In this document: positions 6,859-64,000 of the stretch, piece after piece
How positions within the stretch are numbered: position 1 is the stretch's first letter
How the letters are laid out: each line of letters starts with the position of its first letter
From: a virus
DNA: 64,000 bases
IMG/VR virus record: IMGVR_UViG_3300030098_005028
Coordinates: 1 to 64,000 of that record
Reading direction: 5' to 3' (one strand)
The notes under the pieces: model-generated
The model's database searches: none
Seen by the model: only the letters and a program-made list of their open reading frames with translations
Told to the model about the DNA's origin: nothing
Made by a program: the position numbers and the translations under genes

Positions 6859-6870
6859 AGTTGTATAGGT

Positions 6871-42720: not shown

Positions 42721-42728
42721 TGGTGTAT
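42721..42728 (+). promoter_or_regulatory. Putative late promoter motif TGGTGTAT
   Basis: Immediately after a stop codon, before GGAGG and ATG 42754. Confidence 0.65.
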
Positions 42729-42753
42729 ATACACATAGATGGAGGGCTTTTAA

Positions 42754-44777: not shown

Positions 44778-44778
44778 C

Positions 44779-45555: not shown

Positions 45556-45556
45556 T

Positions 45557-46018
45557 TTATTCCTCGCATATTTTTAATATTGTATTTATGTCAAAATTTT
45601 CTAGAATATGATCTACTTTTCTGTTAAAAGAATTTTCTATCACAGAAGAATGATTATGACATCTAGATACTATTTTTATTTTATTATTAGAAAACAAATC
45701 AAGAACTGGATTATAGTTATGTGGCATACGCAGCCATTCTAAGTCCCAGACATAGTATATTTTTGTATTCGCTGAAGGATAAGATGCCATCTTCTTTGCT
45801 GTTGATAAAGAGGTAGCAATCATTATTCCTTCTTGACCCCAAGCCTCTGCCATTTGCATAGTTGGAAATCTAGCAAACATACAGTCTTTCTCTACATTTT
45901 CACAATAAACGGTTGGGTCTACGTTCCCTTTTCCAGCAACTTTGTTGAAATTATTTATCAAATAGTATGATAGCTGACTTGACCCAAGACTTCTTACTAA
46001 TGCTCCTATTTTTATCAT
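45557..46018 (-). CDS. Hypothetical protein, GT-B N-domain-like
   Basis: IAT..STA...KIYYVWDLEW; translationally coupled. Confidence 0.45.
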   Translation of the reverse strand: MIKIGALVRSLGSSQLSYYLINNFNKVAGKGNVDPTVYCENVEKDCMFARFPTMQMAEAWGQEGIMIATSLSTAKKMASYPSANTKIYYVWDLEWLRMPHNYNPVLDLFSNNKIKIVSRCHNHSSVIENSFNRKVDHILENFDINTILKICEE

Positions 46019-46953
46019 TTACTATATCCATTAACAAAATTGACAACTTTCTGAATTTCATTCTTAGTTAGTCTCTCATGATAGGGAAGACTCACTGTGC
46101 TATCAGACTCACTTATAGACTTCCGATAATCTCTGTTATATGGCATATGAATAGATATGTTTTTATAGAATGGCTTTTCATGACAATGTGTATAATGTAT
46201 TCCACATATTATGCCAGATTTTTTTGCTTGTTGAATAAAGTCTTTATTGCTTTTTACTCTTATTCTATATAGATGTCTACTTACATTTTGATAGCCAAAC
46301 TCTTGGTTGTATGTGGCTCTTATGTTATCAAGTATTTCATACTTTTCATTTAGCTTATTTAAGTTCTCATTTGCTATATATGCAGATAAAGAATTCCAGT
46401 GCATCTTATGCCCAGCAGAGCTATGAACTCTTTCCCAATTATTTTCAGAGTAACTCATGCCATTCAGCGTTTTTTCTCTGTAACTTTCTATTGCTTGTTT
46501 ATTATCAGAAACGATTATTCCTCCGTCACAACCGCCTACCGGCTTAGTTGGATAGAAGCTAAATATCATTTCTGCGTTTGGTTTTCCAAGGTCTCTAAAT
46601 TGATTCCTCGTAACTTCTTGGGCAGAATCAATCAATACCTTTTTGCCATCATCAATAAGAGTATATGCACTTCCTACCCAATCAACATCATCATAAAAAA
46701 TATATTTTGAGCCTGCCATTTCAAGAGCGTTAGGAACAACAGGAGGTATGCAACTAGGCACTGAAATTATTTGGTCGTAATCTTTTGTTGCTAGATATAT
46801 CAAGCTAGACGCACTGTTTGCAGAACAAGCATATTTAGCCCCGACATATTCCGCAAATTTTGTTTCAAATTCATTTACTATGTCGCCATGAAGCCAGTTT
46901 CCTAGATCACTGGTGTTTAGCTCATATTGGTTAATGTGAAACAAGTTTATCAT
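46015..46953 (-). CDS. DegT/DnrJ/EryC1/StrS sugar aminotransferase
   Basis: FE.KFAEYVGAKY, IDSAQ, FSFYPTKPVGGCDGG, VSLP. Confidence 0.9.
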   Translation of the reverse strand: MINLFHINQYELNTSDLGNWLHGDIVNEFETKFAEYVGAKYACSANSASSLIYLATKDYDQIISVPSCIPPVVPNALEMAGSKYIFYDDVDWVGSAYTLIDDGKKVLIDSAQEVTRNQFRDLGKPNAEMIFSFYPTKPVGGCDGGIIVSDNKQAIESYREKTLNGMSYSENNWERVHSSAGHKMHWNSLSAYIANENLNKLNEKYEILDNIRATYNQEFGYQNVSRHLYRIRVKSNKDFIQQAKKSGIICGIHYTHCHEKPFYKNISIHMPYNRDYRKSISESDSTVSLPYHERLTKNEIQKVVNFVNGYSK

Positions 46954-48712
46954 TTTGGTATCTCATTGTTTCCGTTGTTGTAAAGATTGTTGTGTTATCC
47001 ATATCCTGTATAAAGTCATATGGAATTCTAGAAACCATACTGTATCCTTCTAAAAAAGAATCAATGTCATCTGGATTCATAAACCAGAAAGGTCTAAATT
47101 TTTTATTATCAAAATTTTCTAGACTTGCACATGTTTTGGTATCTGTACAAGTCATATCTTCTATAATTATTTCTTTAGCAGAAGATTCTGTTATATCTTT
47201 TAGTATTTTTGAAGGTTCTTTTTCATATTGTACTTTTGATTTTATGTATACGACATCAGACTCCTGTAAATCAAACGTATACTCAACGTCTTCATATAGG
47301 GCATCCAATAGAGATGAAACCTCATCTTTTTCTTCTACAATGATTGAGTACCTCTTATGTTGGCCTTCTTCTATTGATGAAATTAGTCCATGATATTTTT
47401 TCTTGAAGTGTGGCAGGTCAATGCACACATCTTCTTCTTTCTGCCTAACTTCTGGCTGTTCTGTTTTTATACTAATTACTTGATCAAAAGAGTCATACAT
47501 CCCTTTATATAGTCTGCTTGATTTCTGTCTTATTATTTTTGGGGATGGAATGTGAGTTATAAACTTCCCTCCTCGGTTGGCAAAGTCAACTTCTTTGGCG
47601 AATATTTCTTCGGTAAAATTCCAAGCTCCAAGAAAGGCATAATCTACACTATCATCGAAGTGAGATGGGTCTAGTATTGGAATATGCATTCCCGGTGAAA
47701 ATTTGTTTTGCTTTACCTCTGTATTATCTACAATGTAGTCGATTATTTCTGGGCCTATATTGCAATAGTTAAATATACATGTTGATTTTGATGTTGCTCC
47801 GTAGCTAACAATCTTGCTGCCGTTCTTCTTTATAGCCGTCAACATTTCTACTAGTTCATCTCTAGAACTCTGTACATTTCTGGCAAAGGCCTGATAGGTC
47901 TCCAGATTGTCTATTCCCATAGACTGTTCTTCTCTCAAAGAGGCTTCTACACATGGATCGACCTTTACATGAGAGTTTTCTTTGGTCTTTGCAAATACTC
48001 TATTAGAACCTCCATGAACACTGGTTCTTTGTACATCAAATATCTCCATACCTGCATTCTGAAGAAGATTATTCAAAGATGTTAAAGAGAAGAGGTGTGC
48101 GTGTTCATCATATATCTGGTCATAAGAATTTCTTATAAGCATGTCTACAACACAAGGGTCTTCAAAGATAAACACACCATTAGTATCATCCAGAACGTGT
48201 CTAACCGCATGAAATGCCTCTTGTATGTCTGGAATATGACACATACAGTTTGCAGAGTAAACTAAATCCACAAAATAAAGATCTTTGATCTTCTTTGCAG
48301 ATTCCATGTTCCAGAACACATTGAATGTGTCGTAGCCCATTTCTCTGGTCATCTCAGCAAAATTTCCACACGGCTCTACTGATATCGCTTTATTGGTATC
48401 AAAGTGTTTCAAAAATACTCCGTCATTGCTTCCTATTTCTAGTATTCTGCGATATGGATTAGACTCAATCTCTTTAGCAACAGAAGCAAAGTGATCCCTC
48501 ATTGTCTGCGAACCTGAAGAATGATACATGTAGCTATCATTAAACATTAGTGGTGGATCTACAAATTCCATCAGAGAAACTAGTTTAGTCTCATCATCAA
48601 ATCCTACTTTCATGTCAAAGAAAAATTCTTCTTCATTGCTTTCTAGTTGTTCTTTTGTTAGGAAACCATTTGCTATTGGATGTCTTCCTAAGTCTAAAAA
48701 TTCGGTCTGCAT
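46931..48712 (-). CDS. NDP-hexose C-methyltransferase fused to an extra C-terminal domain
   Basis: LDLG..PIANGF, EIGSNDG, YDQIYDEH, VHGGS, YGATSK, LGAWNF; about 200 extra aa. Confidence 0.85.
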   Translation of the reverse strand: MQTEFLDLGRHPIANGFLTKEQLESNEEEFFFDMKVGFDDETKLVSLMEFVDPPLMFNDSYMYHSSGSQTMRDHFASVAKEIESNPYRRILEIGSNDGVFLKHFDTNKAISVEPCGNFAEMTREMGYDTFNVFWNMESAKKIKDLYFVDLVYSANCMCHIPDIQEAFHAVRHVLDDTNGVFIFEDPCVVDMLIRNSYDQIYDEHAHLFSLTSLNNLLQNAGMEIFDVQRTSVHGGSNRVFAKTKENSHVKVDPCVEASLREEQSMGIDNLETYQAFARNVQSSRDELVEMLTAIKKNGSKIVSYGATSKSTCIFNYCNIGPEIIDYIVDNTEVKQNKFSPGMHIPILDPSHFDDSVDYAFLGAWNFTEEIFAKEVDFANRGGKFITHIPSPKIIRQKSSRLYKGMYDSFDQVISIKTEQPEVRQKEEDVCIDLPHFKKKYHGLISSIEEGQHKRYSIIVEEKDEVSSLLDALYEDVEYTFDLQESDVVYIKSKVQYEKEPSKILKDITESSAKEIIIEDMTCTDTKTCASLENFDNKKFRPFWFMNPDDIDSFLEGYSMVSRIPYDFIQDMDNTTIFTTTETMRYQNDKLVSH

Positions 48713-49038
48713 CTCAACTCCTTGTGCGGTTCTATCTTTTCTAAATCTAATGCCTCAAAAGAGTTGAAGCATCTGTCGCAAATCATTACATCGTATGCGG
48801 GTTTTTTGAATCTGAGTTCATGGTATTTGACTCCATATTTTTCAAATTGAGATTTCGTAAGTTCAGTCCAATCTTCACCGCTTACACTTCCTCTAGCTGT
48901 CCAATAAACTATGTGATGCCCTTCATCATATAATTTGTTTGCTTTTTCAATATTTTTAATTATTGGCTTTGCTTTTTTATAGTTACAATTTTTACTTTGT
49001 GTAAATATGGTATTATCTATATCTATGTATATTTTCAT
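48694..49038 (-). CDS. HAD-family phosphatase (capsule-biosynthesis type)
   Basis: DIDNT, WTARG, KP.YD..ICDR. Confidence 0.85.
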   Translation of the reverse strand: MKIYIDIDNTIFTQSKNCNYKKAKPIIKNIEKANKLYDEGHHIVYWTARGSVSGEDWTELTKSQFEKYGVKYHELRFKKPAYDVMICDRCFNSFEALDLEKIEPHKELRCRPNF

Positions 49039-49688
49039 CGTGTCATGTAATGAGACCTCAAAACTAGTCTCTCATTTCCTTCTCTAAGAACTCCTCCAAA
49101 GTGAAATATATCGCTATCAAATATCAATAAATCACCAGCTTTTCCGGTCATCGGTGTCGAATCTTTTTTAGATATATCAAGATGTGGATAGTCTATTTCT
49201 ATTCTGTTTTTTACTTGACTATAATCTGATGAGTTAGACCAAGCTTTTTTTCTTAGCTGTGCGCCTAGATATCTACTTCCTTTTACGACACTAAAAGGGC
49301 CACAGTCCTCATCACAATCAGTTAGGTAAAGAAAAAATTTAAGAGTATGAAATCTATCAAAATGGAGATATCCGTTTCTAGCAAGTTCTTCATTAGCTAT
49401 ATAATCATGAGTCGCTTGGATTGCGTGTAAGTAGTTATCACCTAAGTACTCTTGTTTTGTTGACTTTATCAATTCATTATCGAATACTTTTCTTACTTCG
49501 CTTGAAGGAGGAGCCAGATTTTCCAATGGTATGAAGTTGAGTGCTTTTCCAAATTGATAGCCTCCTTCTGAAAAATTTTCTATTTTTTCCAACACTTCTT
49601 GCTTTATTGTTTCTATATCTTCTAAAGGAACAAACCCTTCTAGTTTGACTATGCCTTCTTTCAGTATTTCTCTAGGTAGATCTTGCAT
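49035..49688 (-). CDS. Phytanoyl-CoA dioxygenase-family 2OG-Fe(II) oxygenase
   Basis: LHFD, YLTD...GPF.VVKGS, AGDLLIFD...H.G....R. Confidence 0.8.
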   Translation of the reverse strand: MQDLPREILKEGIVKLEGFVPLEDIETIKQEVLEKIENFSEGGYQFGKALNFIPLENLAPPSSEVRKVFDNELIKSTKQEYLGDNYLHAIQATHDYIANEELARNGYLHFDRFHTLKFFLYLTDCDEDCGPFSVVKGSRYLGAQLRKKAWSNSSDYSQVKNRIEIDYPHLDISKKDSTPMTGKAGDLLIFDSDIFHFGGVLREGNERLVLRSHYMTR

Positions 49689-50607
49689 AATGTTTCACCG
49701 TCTTTTCTATATCTGAATGAAAATCGCCTTCATATTCAAAGCCTTCTGCTCTTAAAAATTGAGAACTTATAGAGTACCTTTGGTCATGACCAAGCCTATC
49801 TTCTACGAATTCAATATGCTCATCAGCTTCTTTGTTCATAACATCACAAATGAGCTTTATCATTTCAATATTTTGTAGCTCAATTCCAGAGGATATATTG
49901 TATATATTGTTTTTTAGGCTATCTCTATTTTTTATTATGAATCCTATTGCTGAGGCAGTTTCATACACAGAAGTCCATTCTCTTATTTGTTTTCCGTCTC
50001 CATAAAGAGGAACCTTCTTCCCTTCAGATATCCTAGTCACAGATTTAGGAAAAAGTTTCTCAGTATGTTGACGTGGGCCAAAATTATTAGATGGCCTAAC
50101 AATAATACATTCAACACCATATGTATTCTCATAGGCTTTTATCATCATATCTGCCGAGGCTTTTGTTGCAGCATATGGATTTTTTGGGTTCAACCTTGCA
50201 TATTCATGGAAAGAACCTTCTGCAATATCACCATATACTTCATCAGTAGAAACATGCAATAATTTGACTGAATCTTCTTTGCAAACTTCTAACAATGATT
50301 TAACACCGAGAACATTAGACCAAAGAAAATCGTCGCAAGATTCAATTGATCTATCAACGTGCGTGTGAGCAGCTAGATTTATAATCCATTGAATATCGTG
50401 ATTTTTACATATTGAGGATATATCCTGTTGTTGATTGATGTCTATTTTGTAGCCCGCTATCGCATTAGGCTCAAAATCAATCGTATTAGCTGGATTAGCG
50501 GCATATGTAAACGAGTCTATGGCCACAACACCGAAGCCGTTATTTGTAAACCAATCTGCTACATGGCTACCAATGAAACCGGCAGAACCTGTAATTGCTA
50601 CATTCAT
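49672..50607 (-). CDS. rmlB: dTDP-glucose 4,6-dehydratase
   Basis: GSAGFIG, THVDRSI, STDEVYG, PYAATKA, NNFGP.QH.EK, DRLGHD.RY. Confidence 0.93.
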   Translation of the reverse strand: MNVAITGSAGFIGSHVADWFTNNGFGVVAIDSFTYAANPANTIDFEPNAIAGYKIDINQQQDISSICKNHDIQWIINLAAHTHVDRSIESCDDFLWSNVLGVKSLLEVCKEDSVKLLHVSTDEVYGDIAEGSFHEYARLNPKNPYAATKASADMMIKAYENTYGVECIIVRPSNNFGPRQHTEKLFPKSVTRISEGKKVPLYGDGKQIREWTSVYETASAIGFIIKNRDSLKNNIYNISSGIELQNIEMIKLICDVMNKEADEHIEFVEDRLGHDQRYSISSQFLRAEGFEYEGDFHSDIEKTVKHYARST

Positions 50608-51473
50608 TAGACTATTCCGTAAAGATAATTACTGTATTCGTTCTTGCCTAGATTGCCCGCAAGATGTAAGAGTTGCCTTTTGCTGATGTAGCCTAGATTA
50701 TATGCTATCTCTTCCAAGCAGGCAATCTTCAAACCCTGTCTTTTTTCGATTGTCTGTATAAAGTTTGATGCCTCTAATAGAGAATCATGAGAACCAGCGT
50801 CGAACCAAGCATAACCTCGCCCAAATATCTCAAGCATCAACTTCTTGCTTTTCAAGTACACATTATTGACATCGGTTATTTCAAGTTCGCCTCTTGAAGA
50901 AGGACTTATGGTTTTTGCAATTTTTACTACATCATTACTATACATATATAGCCCGACAGCCGCACAATTTGATTTTGGATTTTCAGGCTTTTCCTCGATG
51001 CTTACGACACGTCTATTTCTGTTATATTCTATGACACCATATTCTCTTGCGTCATTAACATGATAACCAAATATTACAGATTTGTTATTTTCAGTTATTT
51101 CTCTGCTAGTTCTAAGAATAGTTGGTAAAGCATCTCCATAAAATATATTATCGCCAAGTATCAAACAAACAGAGTCATCGCCAATAAATTCTTCGGCTAT
51201 TATAAAGCATTCAGCTATTCCTTTTGGCGATTCTTGAATGTTATATTCAATATTTATTCCAAGATGAGAACCGTCTTCAAAAAGAGACTTATATAAATTA
51301 ATCTGGTCAGGCCTTGTAATAACCATGATATCTTTTATTCCTGCCAGCATTAATGTTGACATTGGATAATATATCATCGGCTTATTATATATAGTAAGTA
51401 GCTGCTTCGTTATTACATTAGTTGCTGGATAAAGTCTTGAGCCTGATCCACCAGAAAGCACTATTCCCTTCAT
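50607..51473 (-). CDS. rmlA: Glucose-1-phosphate thymidylyltransferase
   Basis: GGSGSRLYPAT, KQLL.IYNKPMIYYP, LGDNIFYG, EEKP, RGELEITD. Confidence 0.96.
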   Translation of the reverse strand: MKGIVLSGGSGSRLYPATNVITKQLLTIYNKPMIYYPMSTLMLAGIKDIMVITRPDQINLYKSLFEDGSHLGINIEYNIQESPKGIAECFIIAEEFIGDDSVCLILGDNIFYGDALPTILRTSREITENNKSVIFGYHVNDAREYGVIEYNRNRRVVSIEEKPENPKSNCAAVGLYMYSNDVVKIAKTISPSSRGELEITDVNNVYLKSKKLMLEIFGRGYAWFDAGSHDSLLEASNFIQTIEKRQGLKIACLEEIAYNLGYISKRQLLHLAGNLGKNEYSNYLYGIV

Positions 51474-52543
51474 GACATTGTTCTCAAAAAACCTTGTAAA
51501 TTATCTATTTCTTGCTCACAAAGAGAGTAAGTATCTTCTAAAAAGTAGTACTGTTCTGGCAAATCTATATTAAAAGGGTTTAGTGAACCCACTATTGTTT
51601 GTAAATCTATTAGCCTTGAATCATCACAATACTTTTTAGATTCATCTATCTTACTGACAAGAAGGTCAACATCATCGACTCTGGGGGTGTACATTTCTAT
51701 ATAGCATTTTCTAAAATGATCCCTGCATACATCAAAATCCTCGCCATCACACATAGACATCGCAAATGTGATGCCATCTGTCATTTTAGCAAAGTTCTCA
51801 GGCCATTCACCCTGTCTAATCCATGTATTTTGATCTGGAAAATGTATGTGTCTTTCTCCTCCTTCCACCCTTGGTGTACCATGCTCATGAATAATGTGAC
51901 AGAAAGAATTGTCTCTCATACCGTCTCCCCAAATTATGCTTAGAAACCCTATCATTTGATCGCAGAATCTAAGGTTAGATGGGCTAAGATACCATAATAT
52001 GCTCCAATTCATTTGTGCCGATTGAGTTCTTATAACATTATGCCAATTGCTGTGAAATCTTGTTGCTTGACTGTGAATTCTTTCTGCCGATGTGTCTCCT
52101 GTGATTGACTCAGGAAATTCGGTATACATAGGAGATCTTTCTTCGATTCCTCTCTCTCCAATATGCACCCCTGTCTTTCCCCCTCTAGCCGAACAGAAAT
52201 CTCTATTTTTGTTTAAGAAATCAATACAAGACTTTATTCCATTTATTGTAAAAAAATCATCATTGTCTATAACCATACATAGGGGCGTTTCGACTGCTAG
52301 TAATGATCTAGCGACTTTTCCATAGAAATCCTGAACTGTTTTGTCATATGGAAATCTAAGATATTCAATTTTCAATCCATCATAATAGTTTGATTCTATG
52401 CTTTTTTGTATTCTTGAGTCTATTTCTCCCCCATCAGCTATGACCAAAGGGAAAGGGCATTCTATTTCATACAAATAAGCCAAGAGACGGCGAGAATAGA
52501 ACTCTCTGCCTTTGATTGGTAATACTAGTGTTAGATCATTCAT
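51470..52543 (-). CDS. GT2-like glycosyltransferase (TIGR00180-like)
   Basis: LTLVLP...R, VIADGG, DNDDF. Confidence 0.75.
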   Translation of the reverse strand: MNDLTLVLPIKGREFYSRRLLAYLYEIECPFPLVIADGGEIDSRIQKSIESNYYDGLKIEYLRFPYDKTVQDFYGKVARSLLAVETPLCMVIDNDDFFTINGIKSCIDFLNKNRDFCSARGGKTGVHIGERGIEERSPMYTEFPESITGDTSAERIHSQATRFHSNWHNVIRTQSAQMNWSILWYLSPSNLRFCDQMIGFLSIIWGDGMRDNSFCHIIHEHGTPRVEGGERHIHFPDQNTWIRQGEWPENFAKMTDGITFAMSMCDGEDFDVCRDHFRKCYIEMYTPRVDDVDLLVSKIDESKKYCDDSRLIDLQTIVGSLNPFNIDLPEQYYFLEDTYSLCEQEIDNLQGFLRTMS

Positions 52544-53252
52544 TTAATTCTCTTTTCATTTTATCTAGATTCATAGAGGTATCTTTTGGCATTATTTCAC
52601 TAATATCTTCTAGATATATTTTTCCAACATCTGGATTATCTTTTTTTGCGAATTCATATATGCTAGACGATTTTCCTCCTATGTTTATTGTTCCTTTCTT
52701 GTCTAAAAGCATAAGTATTATGTCTGCTACGTCATCATCATATATTAGACTTTTTTTAGAATCTGCTATCGCTGATTTATGAGGAAATGGCTTAGAACAC
52801 ATCGCTACTCTTAGGATGAGATGATTGTCGTGCATTCTTACAGCACATTCGCCTCCAAGTTTAGACCAAGCATACTTATTTATTGGTAATATCGGGTCTT
52901 CTTCTTTGTAGTCTCCAGTCAATCCGGGATAAACAAAGTCAGTTGATATATAAACAAGCTTTATCCCCATCATTATGCAGGTCGCAGCGACATGAGATGT
53001 TCCAACAATATTAGTATGCAGGCTTTCCAAAGGGTTATTATCATGAATATTCATTGGCCGTGTCAATGCGGCGGTATGTATGATTACATCTGGCTTTACA
53101 GCACCAACCCAAAATGTAATGTCTGACATTGATTTGATATTCATCTCCCCTTTTGGAGGAGCGACTATGTCATGATTACGACTACGGTTTGACTGAATTA
53201 TTTTTTTTGCCAGCTTTCCTTCGCCGCCGGTAATTAATATCTTCATACCCAA
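52536..53252 (-). CDS. rmlD: dTDP-4-dehydrorhamnose reductase-like SDR
   Basis: TGGEGKL, YISTDFVY.G, YKEED...PINKYAWSKL.GE. Confidence 0.8.
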   Translation of the reverse strand: MGMKILITGGEGKLAKKIIQSNRSRNHDIVAPPKGEMNIKSMSDITFWVGAVKPDVIIHTAALTRPMNIHDNNPLESLHTNIVGTSHVAATCIMMGIKLVYISTDFVYPGLTGDYKEEDPILPINKYAWSKLGGECAVRMHDNHLILRVAMCSKPFPHKSAIADSKKSLIYDDDVADIILMLLDKKGTINIGGKSSSIYEFAKKDNPDVGKIYLEDISEIMPKDTSMNLDKMKRELNE

Positions 53253-55647: not shown

Positions 55648-56366
55648 CCTTTTCTCCTTAGATAGCCATCTGGATGACAGGAGAACAATAGTTTGTTGCG
55701 AATCCTTTCATCTCTCTCAAAATTTTCATTAGAATCCAGAAACTCATTCAAAGCGGTTCGTGGGTTATTTCCTTTACCCCATTCTTTATCTCTGTGAAGT
55801 TTTGGCATGTCTTCAATAACAGTGTCTGCACAAATCAAGTAGCATCCTTCACTTACCAGTTCACTATATATATTAAGTTCTTTTAGTACATGTTCATGTG
55901 TATGGTGAGAGTCGAGTATTACCATGCATTTACCATCTACCTTGTTTTTTATTTGATCTAATGTTTCTTTGTGTAAAGAAGAGCCTTCTAGAAATATCAA
56001 CTCTACTCCAATATTTTTTTTAGTTACTCTATCTAACATGTCTTCTGGCATGTAGATGTCGATACCTATTAATGATTTGCCACCATACATAGCCATTAAT
56101 GTCGAGTAAAATAGTGATGATCCTCCCCAAGCTACTCCTACCTCAATAATATGGTCTGGCTTAGTATCAAGAATTATTTCTTGTATTGCAAACATATCTT
56201 GCGGTAACTGAAGGACTGGTTCTCCTTGCCAATTAGTTTGGTTAATCCAGTGATAACTGTCAGCATGACACAAAGTGCTTATTGCCTTATTCTTCAAAGA
56301 TTTGTCTTCCCACATATCTTTTGCTTCAGACAGTCGTAGTTCCTCAAATTCTTCCCTAGTGTACAC
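55644..56366 (-). CDS. CmcI/rhamnosyl O-methyltransferase family
   Basis: W.GEP.LQLPQD, KPD.IIE.GVA.GGS, LDSHHTHEHVLKEL, WGKGNNP, PDGYL. Confidence 0.9.
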   Translation of the reverse strand: MYTREEFEELRLSEAKDMWEDKSLKNKAISTLCHADSYHWINQTNWQGEPVLQLPQDMFAIQEIILDTKPDHIIEVGVAWGGSSLFYSTLMAMYGGKSLIGIDIYMPEDMLDRVTKKNIGVELIFLEGSSLHKETLDQIKNKVDGKCMVILDSHHTHEHVLKELNIYSELVSEGCYLICADTVIEDMPKLHRDKEWGKGNNPRTALNEFLDSNENFERDERIRNKLLFSCHPDGYLRRKG

Positions 56367-57123
56367 AGGCTTTGATCTCCTCTTGTTTTGTAATCAAATA
56401 ATCGACTCTAGAAAGATCTATTTGGCAGTCGGCATCTGAAGTAGACGAAGGAGGATGAGGATGAACCTCGGCAAATACAGCGTCATAGCCAAACACGCCA
56501 GATGATAGAAGATATTTTTCTGCTAATGACCTATCTCCTTGAGTACCATACACATGCCTGCTTCTTTGTGTAGAGTGAGTACAGTCAATTACAACTTTGT
56601 CATAACACTTTTTCAATTCTTCTATAATAGTAAAATCGACAATCAACTTGTCGTAACCATAGTTAGAACCCCTGTCGCATACCCATGCCTCTGTACTAGG
56701 GTCTGTATCTTTAATTTTATCTAAAGACTTAATCAGGTTGTTAGGCCCGATCCACTGACCCTTCTTTATGTTTACTTTGTCAAATGACTGAGCAGAAGCA
56801 ACTATTAGGTCTGTTTGACGACATAGAAAAGCAGGGATTTGCACCAAGTCAATCACACCAGCAAGCTTTTCTACCTGCCACACTTCATGAATATCTGTGG
56901 TTAATTTTATAGTAGGGTGCTTTTCTTTTACCTCACGAAAAAGTTCAATCCCTTCTTCCAAACCAACACCACGTCCTCCGTATAAAGAAGTACGATTAGC
57001 TTTATCAAAAGAGGCTTTATAATACCAGTCACGATCACCCATTATTTCTACTAAGTGATCAGCCGTATTTAGGTACATCTCCCTGTTGTCAATAGTACAA
57101 GGCCCTAGTATCCAAGTGGTCAT
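56356..57123 (-). CDS. kdsA: 3-deoxy-8-phosphooctulonate (Kdo-8-P) synthase family
   Basis: GPC, KASFDKANRTS, TTDIHE, QIPAFLCRQTDL, NIKKGQ, DCTHS. Confidence 0.92.
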   Translation of the reverse strand: MTTWILGPCTIDNREMYLNTADHLVEIMGDRDWYYKASFDKANRTSLYGGRGVGLEEGIELFREVKEKHPTIKLTTDIHEVWQVEKLAGVIDLVQIPAFLCRQTDLIVASAQSFDKVNIKKGQWIGPNNLIKSLDKIKDTDPSTEAWVCDRGSNYGYDKLIVDFTIIEELKKCYDKVVIDCTHSTQRSRHVYGTQGDRSLAEKYLLSSGVFGYDAVFAEVHPHPPSSTSDADCQIDLSRVDYLITKQEEIKACVH

Positions 57124-58007
57124 TTAACAATCTCCAAAATTTTAGCAATTCTCTTTTTCTCTGTAGGTGTGACAGAAGGAAAGGGATGCCTATTGTAATC
57201 ACAAAATCCTAGCTGACGAAGAGCCTCCCTCATCGCCTTGTGCCATCCAATTGACATAAACACATCGAATAACTGTGTCTCTTTATGGATGTAGAACATA
57301 CTTTTTGTCTTAAAGTATTCTATTTCTTGCTTTGGAAACATACTTCCAATGCCAGAGACGAAGGATTGTACACCGGTGGGTTGTAGCGCATTGAAGCGAC
57401 GAATACTCCCGCCAGCAACTATAACACAGAAATTCTTCTTGTCAATATCTTTGCATACATTAAATGCCAATCCGAGGTCAGAAGTTTCTTCTTTCATGCC
57501 AAATATGTTTTTATGAGAAGAAATCTTATTAATTAATTCTGCTGTATAATCATAAGACCCTCCAGTTCCCTTACGCATGAACATACCATGAAATATTACG
57601 GGTAACTTACTTCTATCTGCTATCTTATGAAAGTAGCTAACAATGGTCTTATCGTCATAATATCTATCAGGATAAAGAGCCATTAAAAAAGTTTTATTAC
57701 TTTTCTTCATCTTTTCGTTATAAAAGTCAACATCATCAAGTACAGACCGTAAATCTTTTCCCTGAAGACCAATTATCTTTGTATTTACGAAAGAGTCATA
57801 GAGAGTAAAGTTGAGAGAAAATATTTCTTCCTTACTTAGAAGATTATATTGAGAAGTCCCTGCTGTAGTCATAACGCATTTTGCGCCATTTGATTGCAAG
57901 TATGATATGTACTTTTTTGTCTTTGCTAGATCTAGGTCTCCGTTTCTTTTATAAGAAGGAGGCAACGCAAAAGATGGTGTGTCGCATAACATTTTTGACT
58001 TATTCAT
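57120..58007 (-). CDS. DHDPS/N-acetylneuraminate lyase-family class I aldolase
   Basis: G.LDL, TAGTSQ..LLS..E, YF..IAD...LP, N..GMKEE (Schiff-base Lys). Confidence 0.8.
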   Translation of the reverse strand: MNKSKMLCDTPSFALPPSYKRNGDLDLAKTKKYISYLQSNGAKCVMTTAGTSQYNLLSKEEIFSLNFTLYDSFVNTKIIGLQGKDLRSVLDDVDFYNEKMKKSNKTFLMALYPDRYYDDKTIVSYFHKIADRSKLPVIFHGMFMRKGTGGSYDYTAELINKISSHKNIFGMKEETSDLGLAFNVCKDIDKKNFCVIVAGGSIRRFNALQPTGVQSFVSGIGSMFPKQEIEYFKTKSMFYIHKETQLFDVFMSIGWHKAMREALRQLGFCDYNRHPFPSVTPTEKKRIAKILEIVK

Positions 58008-58641
58008 AAGATATAATTAATCCTTTGTCTATCAATTCTTTTATTTTAGATCTTTCATATTTGTAGTGATGGGTCATATGAGTCCCTTTGTCTTCCCAGT
58101 AATGCTGCGCGAACTCGTCATTCAACCCAAAACCGAATATATGAGGTATGACACCAACACGAATACATAGGTGTATTATCGCAAAACCTATGCTTGGTCT
58201 TCTATGGCCCGTGTTAACTTGACATATGTGTTGTATTGAAGAGTAGTCTCCTAGATAAGGATCGCAAGACGAATGTATGTTCTCATGTCTTGACCTCCAT
58301 TCATCACCCCTGCCGTTATGTTCATTAGTCTGTGGGCCAATCATTAATATTTTCATATTTCTAAGATCTTTGACGAAGTTTGCTGGTTGACCTTTGTTCG
58401 TCCAGTTGCCGACTCTTGGGTGCGGCACATTTGAAAATACATGTTGATTAGCAACACGAATAGTGGTTCTAGAACCTACATGGGTTTCATAGCTTTCTGT
58501 TGGCGCTCTGTTAAATCTAACTATGTCGTCGAATTCGTCAATGAATTCACCGTATGTTCTATTAAGTATAGATGGACTAGAAGCAATTATTGCTATGTTG
58601 TTACTTACATCTAGGTCTGGAGTTACATATTGAAGTATCAT
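58000..58641 (-). CDS. GT29 (sialyltransferase-family) glycosyltransferase
   Basis: Sialylmotif L (IAIIASS...GEFIDEFDDIVRFNRAP...HVGSRTT), S (PSIG....C......FGF), III (HYWE), VS (HHYKYE); AGGAGG supports ATG 58641. Confidence 0.85.
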   Translation of the reverse strand: MILQYVTPDLDVSNNIAIIASSPSILNRTYGEFIDEFDDIVRFNRAPTESYETHVGSRTTIRVANQHVFSNVPHPRVGNWTNKGQPANFVKDLRNMKILMIGPQTNEHNGRGDEWRSRHENIHSSCDPYLGDYSSIQHICQVNTGHRRPSIGFAIIHLCIRVGVIPHIFGFGLNDEFAQHYWEDKGTHMTHHYKYERSKIKELIDKGLIISYE

Positions 58642-59321
58642 CCACAACATCCTCCTGAACTTACATTTTCAATAGCACCTAAGTCTTTTAAGAGAAGAAC
58701 GTCTACTGAGTCTTCTTCTCCGTTTGGATTTGTGCCAAATGTATCCCATTTGAATATCGTATACCCATTTTTCTTTATTGTTTGCAAAAACTCTGACTTG
58801 TTATATGAAAATTTATATGTCTTTATTCCGTATGGTGTTTGATAAACTTCGCTATTACTTTTTTCTTTTGTTATTGGTATTCTCTGCAAAATTATCATAT
58901 TTGCGCATATGCTAAGTATGTGTTCTAGGCATTCATTTCCATTTGGTAGTATGTCTATCAGCCCATTAACAACAATAAGGTCATTATCAAAAATATCATC
59001 CCACTTGATATCTTGATAAGATTTGTTATAAAAACTACCAATCTCTCCAAATGATTCACTTGCTAGGTCAACTGCCTCTTTTGAATAGTCATACCCTATG
59101 TATTGAACATCCTCAAACTCTTGCGCTACTATCATTGAGTAGGCACCACACCCACAACCAATGTCAATAACTCTAGAAATTCTCTTCCTTACCATCGTTG
59201 CCTGATCAACAAAATGGTGCCAATGTGCAGGCCATTCATTTTGAAACTGGCTTATGTTAAGTCTTAATTGCTGTACAAATACATCTCTGTTTTTCCATGA
59301 GTCAATGTGTTCGGAATTCAT
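58638..59321 (-). CDS. Class I SAM-dependent methyltransferase
   Basis: VIDIGCGCG, YIGYDYS. Confidence 0.85.
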   Translation of the reverse strand: MNSEHIDSWKNRDVFVQQLRLNISQFQNEWPAHWHHFVDQATMVRKRISRVIDIGCGCGAYSMIVAQEFEDVQYIGYDYSKEAVDLASESFGEIGSFYNKSYQDIKWDDIFDNDLIVVNGLIDILPNGNECLEHILSICANMIILQRIPITKEKSNSEVYQTPYGIKTYKFSYNKSEFLQTIKKNGYTIFKWDTFGTNPNGEEDSVDVLLLKDLGAIENVSSGGCCG

Positions 59322-60195
59322 TTAGCTGATCCTCAAACCTTTTTTTCAACTTGTCCATATTCTGTAGAATTATCTCTGGGTGTTCTTCTTCAAAAGGCTT
59401 TGTTCTACAAGAGCCTCTTACACTAGGTTTGAACTCATGAACACCGTCATACTCTTCTTCTATTCGACTTCTGGTTGATTGACTTCCAGTAACCCAAGGA
59501 AGGTATACATTTTCAAAATAATCATCAATACAATTTTGTTTACTTACCGCTGCTTTATAGTAGCTTACTTTTTGTTTTACTTGTTGAGGGAAGACGTAGC
59601 TGTAGTGATACATTCTGACACCAAGTTTTTCATCCAGCGTATTATGGTCTAGGTGTCTTTTTGGCAATCTTTCGTGTATAGGTATCGTGTGAGCTATAGT
59701 AGGAGGTCTATGTGTTGCCCAATAAGAACCCGGATATACCTTTCGGATTCTCATAAATTCTGCTCCTTCTTCAAATCCTCCTAATACATTATCAAATCCC
59801 CCATAGAAACTTCTGCTTCTGAAACCTACTGAAGTGATTTTGAACTCTTCCAATACCTCCATGATCGTTTCAATATCTCTTGACTTGAATACTTCATCAC
59901 AATCTAAGTTCCATATGTAATCATTGTCTTCATCCAAAAGTTTCATATATGTATTGCACTGATGATCCTTTTCCTGATATTGGCTACTTACGATCTGTAT
60001 TTTATTTTCAGGGTCTGGAATAGAATTCAATACTTCTATGGTTCCATCTGTAGACTTGGATAGTCCTTGTTGTTGCCAGTATGTTACTGGGCCTTCAGCA
60101 ATCAAAATTTGATTTGCATATGGGTAAACAGATTTTATGCACTCTTCAAGTACATAGTTTCCATTAAGAACAATCATTCCAAAGGCTATCTTCAT
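59302..60195 (-). CDS. GT2-like glycosyltransferase
   Basis: MIVLNG....ECI.SV, STDGT, LDCDE, YHYSY. Confidence 0.8.
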   Translation of the reverse strand: MKIAFGMIVLNGNYVLEECIKSVYPYANQILIAEGPVTYWQQQGLSKSTDGTIEVLNSIPDPENKIQIVSSQYQEKDHQCNTYMKLLDEDNDYIWNLDCDEVFKSRDIETIMEVLEEFKITSVGFRSRSFYGGFDNVLGGFEEGAEFMRIRKVYPGSYWATHRPPTIAHTIPIHERLPKRHLDHNTLDEKLGVRMYHYSYVFPQQVKQKVSYYKAAVSKQNCIDDYFENVYLPWVTGSQSTRSRIEEEYDGVHEFKPSVRGSCRTKPFEEEHPEIILQNMDKLKKRFEDQLNEFRTH

Positions 60196-61100
60196 AGTTT
60201 ATATGTACTCTTTATCATGTATGTGCAGTCATAGTAATTGTCGTAAACATCTTTTATTCCTAAGTTAGGCAATATATTTCCCCATTCTCCATGCCTGTCT
60301 ACTCTATATAAACCCTCATCATAGTTAGGATTGAAATGGGAGAAGTGATTGAAAACTAAATCTTGAGTCACTTTCCCCTGCTTCATTACAAATTGAGAGT
60401 CCCACATTATTTTCTTATCTTGTATTTCAGCATGAGGAAAATTCCAAGGCGCACCATGCCCTATGTCTTCGTCTATAATTTTTACATTGTTCTGACCAAA
60501 TATCTCCCCAAACAACTCTAGGTACTTTTGATCTCCGCATGTGCCATGTGTGACAGAAAACCTATTATTAGTATCAACAACCACATCCTTCCAAAAACTT
60601 GAGCAGGGCAGACCTACCTCATCGTTACGGAAGTACACAATACCTACATTGTAATAACCAGTACGGCTATTAGACTCAAGCGATTGGTGCTTATGGGTAA
60701 TTAATCCAATAGAGTAATTATCTACACAGTCAAATATGACTCGTGGGTCTTTATAAAATAGAATATCGGAGTCCACATAGAGACACTCACTACATTTTTT
60801 CAATACAAAGTTTGTAAAGAAGGCCGACAAAGCCCAATGAAATTCACAATGACCATCAGGATGTGTTCCATCGTCCCTAGCGTTATTCTTCTTTAGTAGT
60901 TCAAAGTCGTCACTAGCTAAATCATCCAACCTATACGGAATAATCTCTCTGAAGTTTATATCGTTTAACTTGTGATAGGCAGTATCATCTGTACAAAGAT
61001 AATGTAATTCAAATGGTTCTGATGCGTACTGCCTTATCGAATGATACATCGTAAGACCATATGTAAGATATTTACTGTCTGAAAGAGTTGCGAATATCAT
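60192..61100 (-). CDS. GT-A glycosyltransferase
   Basis: YVDSDILF (DxD), YNVG.VYF, GDQKYL, APWN. Confidence 0.8.
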   Translation of the reverse strand: MIFATLSDSKYLTYGLTMYHSIRQYASEPFELHYLCTDDTAYHKLNDINFREIIPYRLDDLASDDFELLKKNNARDDGTHPDGHCEFHWALSAFFTNFVLKKCSECLYVDSDILFYKDPRVIFDCVDNYSIGLITHKHQSLESNSRTGYYNVGIVYFRNDEVGLPCSSFWKDVVVDTNNRFSVTHGTCGDQKYLELFGEIFGQNNVKIIDEDIGHGAPWNFPHAEIQDKKIMWDSQFVMKQGKVTQDLVFNHFSHFNPNYDEGLYRVDRHGEWGNILPNLGIKDVYDNYYDCTYMIKSTYKL

Positions 61101-61132
61101 TTTATGTAAAACCTAATTTTTATCTTAATATG

Positions 61133-61918
61133 TCATTTTAATTTGATGTAGGATATCCATGTATAATCTGACGCTTCATTTGCGTATATGTCAAAATCTT
61201 TCTTGCGATCTGTTAATAAAGGGTCTGCCGTAATGTCTAGGTACTGCTGCCTGCTGATTTTAGCCCATTTATAGCCACGATCAGAATCTACGGCAGAATA
61301 AATAGGAGGAAACTCATAGTATATCTCTATGTTGTCTTTCAGCCATTGTGCATCTTTTGTATTCAATAATAAGGACGACTTAGGAGAATATGACCTTTCG
61401 CCTTCACTCAAAGGCTCCATGTTGGCAACATTTCCATAAACCGGATGATAGCTATTACCTCTTCCATCGTGGTAGTTATCTTCGTACAGTATGTGTGTAA
61501 ACCCATGATGTGCGGCTTGTTTTACTCTATCAAGACCATAGTGGTCATCAAAAAAGCATAGTGTCTTGCTTTTATCAACTGAGTCCCAATTGATATTGTT
61601 AAAATCTGTAGTTGTGTATTTTATGCGTGGCGATATATATTGTCGAACAAGAAGGTTTGGATCAATAGATATAATTTTTGCATTTGGACATGTAGTTTCT
61701 AGTAGCCAAGAACTTTGGCCTTTCCATATACCACTTTCAATAATGTATTCAGGTTGAAGCTGTCTACACAAGAACCATGTAGCAAACATATGGGAGGAAG
61801 ACATTCCTCCTCCGTTATTACGAATCGGACGAGACGCATATACTCTCAAAAAATCTTCTAGGGAATCAATTAGGTTTTTGTTTTCCCACTGTACTTTTCC
61901 TATAGTCTCATACTTCAT
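61133..61918 (-). CDS. Putative SAM-dependent methyltransferase
   Basis: P..IIESG.WKG.SSW, ISIDP, FFDDH, EDNY. Confidence 0.6.
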   Translation of the reverse strand: MKYETIGKVQWENKNLIDSLEDFLRVYASRPIRNNGGGMSSSHMFATWFLCRQLQPEYIIESGIWKGQSSWLLETTCPNAKIISIDPNLLVRQYISPRIKYTTTDFNNINWDSVDKSKTLCFFDDHYGLDRVKQAAHHGFTHILYEDNYHDGRGNSYHPVYGNVANMEPLSEGERSYSPKSSLLLNTKDAQWLKDNIEIYYEFPPIYSAVDSDRGYKWAKISRQQYLDITADPLLTDRKKDFDIYANEASDYTWISYIKLK

Positions 61919-61942
61919 AGGATAATCCCTTACTTGATAGCA

Positions 61943-62773
61943 TTATTCAAAAACCAACTCAACTTCTTGATGACACCCAACGATATTGCTAAAGTCCATC
62001 TTGTCTATATTTATTCTTTTTCCATCAATGTATTTATCATTTAGTTCTTTTAGTGATATTCCATAAAATTCACCGCTTTGGTTTTCAGATGATCCAACAA
62101 TGTTAATTGGCGTATTTACCAATACACTCTCCTTAAAGGAACACATTAGTGGAAAAAGCTGAGTTCCGACTGGAAACCTGCCTTCTAAAGAATTTGGAGT
62201 GTCATAACCATAAGAATCCAGTATTTCTATCATGTCAGACTTTCTGTAAACATGACCATCTACAGAAAAAGGATACCCGAAGTTAGAAGAGGAGGGCAGC
62301 AAGTACCATTCCCAGCCCATAAATCTATCATGTATCCAAGCACAATTTTTGGGTGTCTCTGATATTGTCTTCTTATAGGGATTTTGAATATATGTGTTTT
62401 CTCCTAATCTAAGAGATAGACACATAGCTTGATCTATATTGAACAAATTTTCTATTTCTTCATAGGAAGCCTCCATCTTCCTGTAGAGTATACTGTCATC
62501 TGTAAAGAAACAGAACAATTCATCCTGCTTTGTATGCTCCTTTAATATATACATAAGACTTTCTTTGAAACCGTATTCTGGCTTTTGTTCTTTGAACATC
62601 GTTGCCTGCGGCTTTTCTGACCTAAGAAGATTATATCCTCTTTGGAAAGAGTTATCGCTGGCAGTGAATAGAACATTTAAGTCAAATATGCCCGGAGCAT
62701 TCTTATGTATACTCTCAATACAAGCCTGTAATTGGGCAGGCCTATCTTTAGAAAAGATTATTCCTGTTATCAT
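61943..62773 (-). CDS. Glycosyltransferase-like protein (GT-A)
   Basis: IIFSKDRPAQL, FFTDD, LSLRLG, FGYP.SVDG, PN.LEG. Confidence 0.55.
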   Translation of the reverse strand: MITGIIFSKDRPAQLQACIESIHKNAPGIFDLNVLFTASDNSFQRGYNLLRSEKPQATMFKEQKPEYGFKESLMYILKEHTKQDELFCFFTDDSILYRKMEASYEEIENLFNIDQAMCLSLRLGENTYIQNPYKKTISETPKNCAWIHDRFMGWEWYLLPSSSNFGYPFSVDGHVYRKSDMIEILDSYGYDTPNSLEGRFPVGTQLFPLMCSFKESVLVNTPINIVGSSENQSGEFYGISLKELNDKYIDGKRINIDKMDFSNIVGCHQEVELVFE

Positions 62774-63689
62774 TAAACCACTCTATTGTGTCTTCCAGTC
62801 CTTCAGACAGTGAGGTCTCTGCCTCGAATCCAAATTCCTTAGCTCTACTAGTATCTAAACATCTTCTAGGCTGGCCATCTGGTTTGGATGTATCCCAGAC
62901 AATCTCACCAGTGTAACCCATTTTTTCAGATATAAGGGCAACTAAATCTCTTATAGTTATCTCTTTTCCTGTACCAATATTAACAGGCTGTGGATCATTG
63001 TGTTGTTCCATAGCAGCAACTATAGCTTCCGCACAGTCTTCAACAAACAAAAACTCTCTACTTGCAGATCCACTTCCCCATACAACAACTTCTTTTTTGT
63101 TGCTCTTTATGGCTTCGTCAAACTTTAAAATTAAAGCAGGAATAACATGACTAATTGCTGGATCAAAGTTATCATTTGGCCCATACATATTTACTGGTAT
63201 TAAGTTTACTCCATTAAAACCATATTGTTCTTTGTAGGAAATTATCATTTGCATCAATGCTTTTTTTGCTATTCCATAAGGAGCATTTGTTTCCTCTGGA
63301 TAACCATTCCATATTTCTTCTTCTTTAAACGGCACAGGAGTAAACTTTGGATAAGCACAGACCGTTCCAATCATCACGAATTTTTTTAGATCATAATGCC
63401 TTGCTGTTTCGATAACATTCATTCCCATAGCCAAGTTGTCATGAATGAATTTTCCGGGATTTTCTTTATTTGCCCCAATCCCTCCGACCTTAGCTGCTAG
63501 ATGAAGTACAACTTTTGGATTAAACATATCAAAAACTCCCGCACACAAGACTGGATCAGTCAAATCATAGACAGAACCTACGGGAAATATTTTTTTGTAT
63601 CCTTTAAACTTGAGTTCTTGAAGAACTGACTTTCCTAAAAATCCAGTTGCTCCAGTTAGCAAGATGCTATCGTCTTTATTTATTTCCAT
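62748..63689 (-). CDS. fcl: GDP-L-fucose synthase
   Basis: AAKVGGIGAN, GTVCAYPK, PYGIAK, PVNMYGPNDNF, SHVIPALI, WGSG..SREF, KPDGQPRR. Confidence 0.95.
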   Translation of the reverse strand: MEINKDDSILLTGATGFLGKSVLQELKFKGYKKIFPVGSVYDLTDPVLCAGVFDMFNPKVVLHLAAKVGGIGANKENPGKFIHDNLAMGMNVIETARHYDLKKFVMIGTVCAYPKFTPVPFKEEEIWNGYPEETNAPYGIAKKALMQMIISYKEQYGFNGVNLIPVNMYGPNDNFDPAISHVIPALILKFDEAIKSNKKEVVVWGSGSASREFLFVEDCAEAIVAAMEQHNDPQPVNIGTGKEITIRDLVALISEKMGYTGEIVWDTSKPDGQPRRCLDTSRAKEFGFEAETSLSEGLEDTIEWFNDNRNNLF

Positions 63690-63999
63690 TTAAAATCTCC
63701 AAACATTTTTCCGCTTCTTCTTTGTATTGTAAGTGACGTAGCAGACTATTTATCCTGTGGCAATATGTATGTTCTTTCATGACAGTCTCATAACAAGCCT
63801 CTGCATGAGACTTTCTTAAATTAGGACTATCAATAAAATATTCTATCATCTTGATAAATTCATTTTCGTCTCTTGCGACTGGCATCTCATTCTTTGTGAA
63901 TACATCTTCTACAAGAGAGTCTATATGATCGGAGATACAAAAAGACTTGCAAGCAGAAATTTTGAAAACTCTTTCATTAACTTCAAATCCAAACTTATT
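63676..63999 (-). CDS. CgeB-like GT-B glycosyltransferase, partial (5' end outside window)
   Basis: Frame stays open to the window edge: GFEVNERVFKISAC...ISD...HTYCHR. Confidence 0.7.
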   Translation of the reverse strand, partial: NKFGFEVNERVFKISACKSFCISDHIDSLVEDVFTKNEMPVARDENEFIKMIEYFIDSPNLRKSHAEACYETVMKEHTYCHRINSLLRHLQYKEEAEKCLEILNGNK

Positions 64000-64000
64000 T

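Follow-up and report, generated by a model that had tools for sequence, protein, structure and literature searches.

Autonomous glycosylation of virions is established in giant viruses and in some mycobacteriophages; for phage virions it has, to our knowledge, been documented only in a few actinobacteriophages, with two to four transferases. In the Che8-type mycobacteriophages phage-encoded transferases modify capsid and tail-tube subunits in the cytoplasm (Freeman et al. 2023, cited in PMC12619734). Gene islands for lipopolysaccharide (LPS) or cell-wall synthesis (LPS/CWSM islands) are carried by T4-like cyanomyophages of the sea (P-SSM2, S-SCSM1 and S-SCSM2R) and by pelagimyophages (the PMP hypervariable region), and have been read, without functional tests, as modifying the host O-antigen (PMC12801897; PMC7029224). 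Here we describe a glycan-biosynthesis island of 31 minus-strand genes (45557-71341, 25.8 kb) that takes up ∼18% of the genome of an uncultured marine tailed phage, IMG/VR record IMGVR_UViG_3300030098_005028. The stretch that we analysed (the window, 64,000 nt) covers bases 1-64000 of this 143,058-bp phage contig, whose estimated completeness is 95%; contig positions past 64000 carry on the same numbering. We favour, tentatively and at a little under an even chance, the reading that the predicted enzymes of the island glycosylate in the cytoplasm a phage-encoded acceptor, most probably one in the virion, without a lipid carrier or export.

The island is like those of the marine myophages in combining many soluble glycosyltransferases (GTs) and nucleoside diphosphate (NDP)-sugar enzymes (KdsA, a cytidylyltransferase, epimerases and RmlC-type cupins) with hypervariable content. 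Unlike the T4-like islands, which lie among tail-fibre genes, it is situated inside the DnaE/SSB replication operon of an unrelated lineage, and its core of three GT4 genes has been inherited vertically with the replisome. A count of 13 GTs has been given as the maximum among marine phages (PMC12801897), and the ∼15 GT-like genes of the whole contig (10 firm, 5 probable) are at or above this figure. With the capsid system of chloroviruses and the fibril systems of Mimivirus and Megavirinae the island shares nucleotide-sugar pathways of its own for rare, methylated 6-deoxy and amino sugars, soluble cytoplasmic transferases without membrane export, and clade-specific variable gene sets; it differs from them in belonging to a tailed phage with a bacterial host, in gene families that are only analogous, and in being known here from genes alone. 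Two marks of export-free virion glycosylation were found, namely nucleotide-sugar enzymes encoded by the phage and soluble transferases without carrier, flippase or exporter genes. The Che8-type systems have two to four transferases, no sugar-nucleotide pathways and C-terminal extensions as acceptors, compared with 31 genes here; no acceptor tail of that type was recognised in this phage.

SSB and a split DnaE are the immediate upstream neighbours of the island, and island and replisome genes share one strand. The minus-strand train of genes to which the island belongs runs from ∼81.5 kb to 43.4 kb and has just two gaps, one of 62 nt toward DnaE (71655-71716) and one of 32 nt (61101-61132); the latter is the sole gap among the 24 complete genes and one cut gene that overlap or abut in the window part of the island (45557-64000). 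A sequence-only reading of the window had proposed a self-contained operon of at least 18 kb with more than 20 tightly coupled genes. The gene count and the large operon are borne out, and the real cluster is longer, going on to 71341. It is not self-contained, because GDP-mannose 4,6-dehydratase (GMD), a mannose-6-phosphate-isomerase-type cupin, a cytidylyltransferase-like gene and five GT-like genes sit elsewhere on the contig (Table 1). The late motif TGGTGTAT, which occurs in short gaps before plus-strand structural genes, is absent from 43381-81505, in agreement with the earlier description of an operon without it. Matches to sigma-70-like promoters are not enriched within the island (71 versus 79 expected).

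Almost all functions ascribed to the window, those of the dTDP-sugar and ulosonic-acid branches and the oxygenase among them, were confirmed with Pfam and NCBIfam. As predicted from such matches, the phage encodes routes from glucose-1-phosphate to dTDP-activated 6-deoxy, 3-amino and C-methyl hexoses and from arabinose-5-phosphate and phosphoenolpyruvate (PEP) to a CMP-activated acid of the Kdo (3-deoxy-d-manno-octulosonate) type; together with the distant GMD, a route from GDP-mannose to a fucose-type sugar is predicted as well. Tailoring enzymes are predicted to cover O-methylation, C-methylation and hydroxylation, with three methyltransferase genes carrying four domains rather than the four genes claimed for the window. 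No KdsD or KdsB equivalent was recognised, the KdsB models giving 39-66 bits, far under their cut-offs. Of the two enzymes needed for the claimed GDP-fucose synthesis, the Fcl-like one, a short-chain dehydrogenase/reductase (SDR), is encoded in the window part of the island and GMD outside the island. The GMD gene is 36 kb away and has two radical-SAM/SPASM genes on one side and PhoH/TerL on the other; its product is predicted to catalyse the first step otherwise missing for the Fcl-like enzyme. Since the latter scores 305 bits with NF047922, below the cut-off of 500 bits, its product may be another 6-deoxyhexose than fucose. The plus-strand block before PhoH/TerL (window 2975-9242) also encodes a sigma-70 region-2-like protein (2975-3604) and, directly before GMD, two radical-SAM proteins with an N-terminal SPASM domain (5815-6858 and 6871-8235). 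The radical-SAM proteins may be extra sugar-tailoring enzymes, and the sigma-70-like protein may be the reader of the late motif.

No flippase, polymerase, initiating transferase or ABC exporter had been seen in the window, and we found none near it or on the rest of the contig. In a Kyte-Doolittle scan of the 35 genes of 43381-71654 the only membrane segment was a marginal internal one in the GT29 protein, and a hydropathy scan of all ORFs of the contig gave none with more than four predicted membrane segments. Bac_transf (PF02397) and ABC_tran (PF00005) have no match on the contig, with positive controls matched. Export genes just past the window, which would have spoken for an O-antigen locus, did not turn up on reading to 71654 or over the whole contig; the set that characterises O-antigen synthesis or serotype conversion (initiating transferase, flippase or exporter, polymerase, GtrA/B-type membrane protein) is likewise absent from the contig.

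The missing export genes do not by themselves decide against a target in the host envelope, because soluble transferases build O-antigens on host carriers. The phage GTs would then act at the inner membrane face on host intermediates linked to undecaprenyl phosphate or lipid A-core, and display would be left to the host initiating enzyme, flippase or ABC exporter and ligase, the altered surface serving, e.g., to exclude other phages. Such remodelling is the published reading of the pelagimyophage and cyanomyophage LPS-type islands (PMC7029224; PMC12801897). Most O-antigen transferases are soluble enzymes of families GT2, GT4 and GT8; LPS typically contains Kdo, 6-deoxyhexoses, 3-amino sugars and O-methyl caps; and early or middle co-expression with replication genes would allow time for a surface change. 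It is the main rival of the reading that we favour, but we judge it unlikely for this island: the host would need to supply all membrane steps, ∼18% of the genome is a large outlay for a surface change, and lysogeny genes were not noticed, though no search was aimed at them.

Further evidence comes from relatives. A profile of one core GT4 (the query was an alignment of the 341-aa core GT4, 67499-68524, with its relatives) picked out at least 340 viral contigs, and the best 80 of these were compared; when GT29 or GT1_2 served as a single-protein query, the viral contigs gave no matches. The order DnaE N-terminal half, exonuclease, DnaE C-terminal half, SSB and three GT4 genes is found in 79-80 of the 80 related loci, and 72 loci have the nucleotidyltransferase. 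In four large relatives (102-161 kb) SSB is followed at once by the three GT4 genes, p153b, p295, GT2, the nucleotidyltransferase, GT1_2 and the Fcl-like gene, and in all four the block closes with p153, the DUF559 nuclease and p299. The Fcl-like gene (37-59% identical in the four) marks the boundary between conserved core and variable part; from the core to p153 there may be almost nothing (islands of ∼5-8 kb) or more than 20 kb. Across the 80 loci, what comes downstream of the conserved DnaE/SSB/GT4 order measures between ∼5 kb and over 25 kb. Homologues of p153 occupy the distal island end in 18 of the 80 loci and in the four large relatives, while a module p276-GT8-GT2-methyltransferase-GT29 recurs in 12 of the 80 and in the relative G004. 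Mapped onto a DnaE tree, the island class shows a minimum of 11 changes, versus ∼26 with shuffled labels, and pairwise GT4 distances track those of DnaE (Pearson 0.82-0.87; mean distance 0.45-0.51 versus 0.47). The syntenic core, the size-variable distal region and the co-divergence of GT4 and DnaE therefore identify the inner part as core genome and the outer part as a swappable cassette. A fixed inner set, consisting of the three GT4 genes and the nucleotidyltransferase, is vertically inherited with the replication genes; its usual companions are a GT2, the GT-A-like protein, GT1_2 and the Fcl-like reductase.

The clade is large, with at least 597 terminase relatives in IMG/VR and TerL diverged to ∼55% identity, and marine data sets contain 3575 cluster-level relatives of the 571-aa GT4. 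The split DnaE with a DEDDh exonuclease gene between its halves (71717-75915) is kept in 63-77 of the 80 related loci. A 48%-identical homologue of the core GT4 (P0043) has been deposited under a 'Candidatus Kariarchaeaceae archaeon' metagenome-assembled genome; its 74-kb contig probably belongs to a phage and was put into the archaeal bin.

Because the core GT4s diverge like DnaE, their acceptor should be as conserved as the replisome, which speaks for a phage component over the host envelope. A phage-encoded acceptor would fit a core diverging in step with DnaE better, and a core paced by DnaE over a clade with TerL at ∼55% identity is hard to square with the host-specific acceptors that envelope remodelling requires. 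In two relatives of the 571-aa GT4 (P0065 and P0066) a ∼370-aa intein with a LAGLIDADG endonuclease is inserted at the invariant PDIV|CD motif. An intein inside a glycosyltransferase is unusual; inteins are typically located in indispensable phage genes, and we count the insertion in favour of the same reading.

Three further observations are weak hints in the same direction. The AlphaFold model of the 571-aa GT4 (predicted local distance difference test, pLDDT, 90.5) has the GT4 of chlorovirus NY-2A as its top PDB match (3oy2, E 1e-19), which may point faintly to a phage product as acceptor. Distant homologues lie between portal, protease and major capsid genes in the cultured cyanophages S-CBS4 and Mae-JY09, a head-module context that would weakly favour a virion acceptor; in TJE1 the homologue adjoins terminase genes and in S-EIVl primase. 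Lastly, a GT25-like gene in the tail operon overlaps the gene of a Cys-rich protein whose N-terminal Ser/Thr tract is the only such tract in the genome. This arrangement, too, would weakly suggest a phage product as acceptor, and the two genes possibly form a dedicated transferase-acceptor pair in this phage only. Four relatives lack the Ser-tract protein and have giant Cys-rich proteins at that place (e.g. 2078 aa with 90 Cys); it was rejected as a general acceptor for that reason.

Glycosylation of a phage-encoded acceptor would proceed as follows. The island enzymes would be produced together with the replisome and would make rare sugars, activated with dTDP, GDP or CMP, from host glucose-1-phosphate, GDP-mannose, arabinose-5-phosphate and PEP. 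From these the three GT4 enzymes and their partners would build a conserved inner oligosaccharide directly on a phage-encoded protein, most probably of the virion. Cassette enzymes would extend, methylate and cap this inner glycan with strain-specific rare sugars, and the GT29 enzyme would put on a terminal Kdo-type acid, a step for which the Kdo transferases of family GT29 in plants offer a precedent (PMC11288761). The glycoprotein would then enter the particle without lipid carrier or export, as in chloroviruses, mimiviruses and glycosylated mycobacteriophages. The more specific proposal, that the virion wears a glycan with a conserved inner part and a rapidly swapped outer part of rare sugars, a Kdo-type acid among them, made by a giant-virus-style machine within the core genome and the replication operon, is possible, though somewhat short of an even chance.

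Several points weigh against a virion glycan. The phage is uncultured and represented here by its genes, so that a glycan on particles is only inferred. The island is without the late motif and lies among replication and recombination genes, where genes that modify the virion are not usually located. An acceptor-like sequence that is conserved did not turn up, the Ser-tract protein being unique to this phage, and the homologues in cultured phages are only 20-23% identical, one of the four (that of S-EIVl) adjoining primase. Soluble GT4, GT2 and GT8 enzymes are, moreover, the normal builders of lipid-linked O-antigen. They also build DNA glycans (bioRxiv 10.1101/2023.12.21.572611), and the acceptor therefore does not follow from fold or family.

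After the chlorovirus enzyme, the PDB folds next nearest to the 571-aa GT4 model include MshA, BshA, sucrose-phosphate synthase and GlgM. These small-molecule enzymes raise the question of another cytoplasmic product, i.e. a free or protein-bound glycan outside the virion. It could be, for instance, a decoy, an oligosaccharide for storage or protection, or sugar attached to a host protein, and such a product would agree with expression that appears tied to early or middle genes. We regard it as improbable, since an osmolyte or thiol precursor would not call for ten transferases and many rare-sugar branches, which imply a complex heteroglycan, and since the hypervariability of the outer part suggests that selection acts on a structure open to recognition from outside.

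Hypermodification of DNA, with oligosaccharides on hydroxylated pyrimidines, would explain the site beside SSB and DnaE, which the island keeps inside the replication operon in every relative examined. The island is like the phage DNA-glycosylation clusters (glucosyl-hydroxymethylcytosine of T4; methyltransferase/TET/GT; arabinosyl-5-hydroxycytosine of RB69 and DLP3) in having GT-A and GT-B enzymes near genes for replication and nucleotide metabolism, and the phage encodes, apart from its DnaE-type replisome, RecA and ribonucleotide reductase, a T4 gp1-type deoxynucleoside monophosphate kinase and a dCMP deaminase. The zinc-ribbon insert in the core 571-aa GT4 may be counted on the same side. 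Known routes to glycosylated DNA start from 5-hydroxymethylcytosine (5hmC), 5-hydroxymethyluracil or 5-hydroxycytosine, the hydroxylated bases being made by a ThyA homologue or by a C5-methyltransferase with a TET-type oxygenase (PMC13326640; bioRxiv 10.1101/2023.12.21.572611). Phage GT-A, GT-B (BshA/MshA-like) and GT8-like enzymes are known to attach mono- to trisaccharides, heptose or Kdo among them, to 5hmC (bioRxiv 10.1101/2023.12.21.572611). GT4-, GT2- and GT8-like folds and even Kdo are thus used on DNA, and the enzyme family alone does not decide the matter.

Several findings tell against DNA. Unlike the clusters just named, this phage has no recognisable ThyA or C5-methylase: the ThyA family (PF00303) was found neither in this genome nor in the four relatives, and C5-methylase (PF00145) was not found in this genome. 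A search with Tet_JBP (PF12851) gave no match, but its control matched nothing either, so that this search is unvalidated. The conserved DUF559 neighbour has a nuclease fold, not that of a dioxygenase, and ten transferases with branched rare sugars are far beyond any known DNA glycan. The genome also avoids restriction sites to an extreme degree. Of the 64 six-base palindromes 27 are absent from the 143 kb (e.g. ATCGAT, CTTAAG, TTCGAA and CTGCAG), most of them with 7-23 copies expected. Among words with an expected count of at least 8, no copy exists of 16 of 48 palindromes versus 8 of 3662 non-palindromic words. The observed/expected ratio has a median of 0.53, and all four-base palindromes are depleted across the contig. 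The avoidance is clade-wide, though weaker in the relatives. Globally modified phages such as T4 show little restriction-site avoidance, and the avoidance weighs against a DNA target because bulk-glycosylated DNA would escape such selection. DNA, which the sequence-only reading had kept as a possible target, is now disfavoured, and we consider it very unlikely. Inside the island palindromes are slightly less purged than elsewhere (13.5 versus 10.3 per kb).

The island encodes eight firm and two probable soluble GTs. About six had been expected in the window, where five are recognisable (the GT8 match is weak) together with two proteins without an assigned family. The glycan genes outside the island were found by running 62 other proteins once against Pfam and then making targeted searches. 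PDB sequence searches gave nothing for p261, p276, the GT25-like protein and three large genes at 95.8-100.7 kb. The GT29 match spans positions 58-271 of the 272 of PF00777, sialylmotif-L region included, and the PDB sequence matches of this protein are ST6Gal1, ST3Gal1 and ST8Sia3. RCKT1, a plant GT29, is the CMP-Kdo transferase of rhamnogalacturonan-II (PMC11288761). The phage enzyme is like RCKT1 in being a GT29 with a supply of CMP-Kdo, not sialic acid, as judged from its neighbourhood of KdsA, cytidylyltransferase and GT29; it differs in having 216 aa and no membrane anchor, and its donor and acceptor are predicted only. Two copies of TGGTGTAT on the minus strand precede genes, at distances of 27 and 70 nt. 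One is at 92027. The other, at 104248, stands at the head of 20 tightly packed genes, most of the large ones without a recognisable family, that include the GT64, GT4 and RXYLT1-like genes; some transferases may therefore be late genes.

Downstream of the island, p299 and p166 complete with the DUF559 gene a minus-strand neighbour block (43381-45555) of non-glycan genes conserved in relatives. The AlphaFold model of the DUF559 protein (pLDDT 86) has helical helix-turn-helix (HTH)-like and Vsr-like parts and no double-stranded beta-helix. Its weak match to 2-oxoglutarate (2OG) oxygenases was rejected on the strength of this HTH plus Vsr-like nuclease fold. Searches of PHROGs gave no match for p153, p153b, p295, p261, p276, p166, p299 and p210. 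A strong hairpin with a 14-bp stem and T runs on both strands (43512-43542) lies inside the 3′ part of the minus-strand gene p166, 126 nt past the stop of the plus-strand gene p210; the two genes are convergent and overlap by 6 nt. It is probably the terminator of late plus-strand transcripts.

Chimeric assembly, which would have undone the sequence-only reading, is excluded, because independent metagenome contigs bridge 42.3-46.8 kb. Two contigs of an independent 2019 study (2245 and 2203 nt, ∼98% identity) cover 42340-44584 and 44556-46758 and so confirm continuity across 43.4-46 kb, and a 52-kb contig, probably from the same sequencing run, spans 41000-48000 without difference. The stretch occurs in marine metagenomes of six studies; megablast of the island against 50,697 phage records gave no match. 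Cultured relatives of TerL and of the head protein are remote only, the nearest cultured TerL being ∼25% identical. The best bacterial matches of RmlA (∼60% identical) are scattered over many phyla, so that no host can be inferred from it, and the tRNA content of the contig (one tRNA-Arg) is uninformative. Both contig ends (window 1-60 and 143000-143058) consist of tandem TCTGCCGATTG-type repeats, and a run of 10 Ns is present at 121268-121277.

Table 1. Genes of the island, its neighbours and related genes elsewhere on the contig (contig numbering)
Feature	Position	Strand	Evidence and remarks
GDP-mannose 4,6-dehydratase (GMD)	8232-9242	+	PF16363 416 bits, E 1e-124
Large terminase TerL	10588-12633		
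Head protein	16962-17954		remotely like Bacillus phage G major head protein
GT25-like	40583-41365	+	tail operon; ESM Atlas 0.99 to viral 'GT25' cluster; weak PHROG glucosyltransferase match, E 0.0013
Cys-rich protein, 318 aa, 31 Cys	41352-42308	+	N-terminal tract with 19/25 Ser/Thr
HTH + Vsr/DUF559-fold nuclease	44779-45555	-	PF04480; downstream neighbour
p153	45557-46018	-	last island gene; no Pfam, PHROG or NCBIfam match
DegT-type sugar aminotransferase	46015-46953	-	PF01041 E 2e-28
NDP-hexose C-methyltransferase, two-domain	46931-48712	-	PF08484 E 1e-48, PF08421, PF13489; TIGR04325 at residues 477-562
Small HAD-like protein	48694-49038	-	TIGR01689 E 1e-4 (weak)
PhyH-type 2OG oxygenase	49035-49688	-	PF05721 E 1e-10
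RmlB	49672-50607	-	TIGR01181 316 bits
RmlA	50607-51473	-	TIGR01207 415 bits, cut-off 361
TIGR04440-type glycosyltransferase	51470-52543	-	TIGR04440 121 bits, cut-off 70
RmlD-like reductase	52536-53252	-	TIGR01214 101 bits
SDR epimerase/reductase	53182-54144	-	
FdtA 3,4-ketoisomerase	54129-54545	-	PF05523 E 4e-47
Second cupin, WbuC/RmlC-like	54524-54973	-	
NeuA/PseF-type cytidylyltransferase	54970-55647	-	best match TIGR03584 (PseF) 140 bits, below cut-off
CmcI-type O-methyltransferase	55644-56366	-	PF04989 E 2.5e-61
Kdo-8-P synthase KdsA	56356-57123	-	NF003543 247 bits, cut-off 242
DHDPS/NAL-family aldolase	57120-58007	-	PF00701 E 1e-9
GT29-family transferase, soluble, 216 aa	58000-58650	-	PF00777 76 bits, cut-off 23, E 3e-21
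Methyltransferase	58638-59321	-	PF13847 E 4e-10
GT2	59302-60195	-	PF00535 23.9 bits (borderline)
GT8-like	60192-61100	-	PF01501 17 bits (below cut-off)
p261	61133-61918	-	extension module
p276	61943-62773	-	extension module
Fcl-like NDP-4-keto-6-deoxyhexose 3,5-epimerase/4-reductase (SDR)	62748-63689	-	NF047922 305 bits over full length, cut-off 500
GT1_2	63676-64704	-	Pfam; core; cut by window edge
MobA/IspD-like nucleotidyltransferase	64701-65447	-	Pfam; core
GT2	65460-66206	-	Pfam; core
GT-A-like p295	66161-67048	-	ESM Atlas features and own model: GT-A/GT2 fold
Methyltransferase-like p153b	67048-67509	-	alignment; core
GT4, 341 aa	67499-68524	-	Pfam; core
GT4	68502-69629	-	Pfam; core
GT4, 571 aa, zinc-ribbon insert	69626-71341	-	Pfam; core
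SSB	71307-71654	-	upstream of island, same train
DnaE C-terminal half	71717-73348	-	upstream of island
DEDDh exonuclease	73296-73973	-	between DnaE halves
DnaE N-terminal half	73960-75915	-	upstream of island
RXYLT1-like gene	93199-94161		outside island
GT4	94481-95569		outside island
GT64	101775-102539		outside island
GT2-like, borderline	105733-106716		outside island
Cytidylyltransferase-like gene	117344-117787		outside island
Mannose-6-P-isomerase-type cupin	118008-118502		outside island

What sets this system apart is its lineage, its site inside a replication operon, its vertically inherited core of three GT4 genes (intein-bearing in some relatives), the presence of the eukaryote-type families GT29, GT64 and RXYLT1-like, and the evidence against a DNA target. 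A self-directed glycan is plausible because the inner island is as conserved as the replisome and all membrane steps are missing. The cluster is a source of soluble rare-sugar enzymes and of a compact GT29 without an anchor. If our tentative reading is true, a widespread marine phage lineage would wear a strain-variable sugar coat, and an abundant uncultured clade of marine tailed phages would have a phage counterpart of bacterial O-antigen diversity, with a bearing on particle adsorption, grazing, host range and virus decay, and on the annotation of auxiliary 'LPS' genes in viromes.

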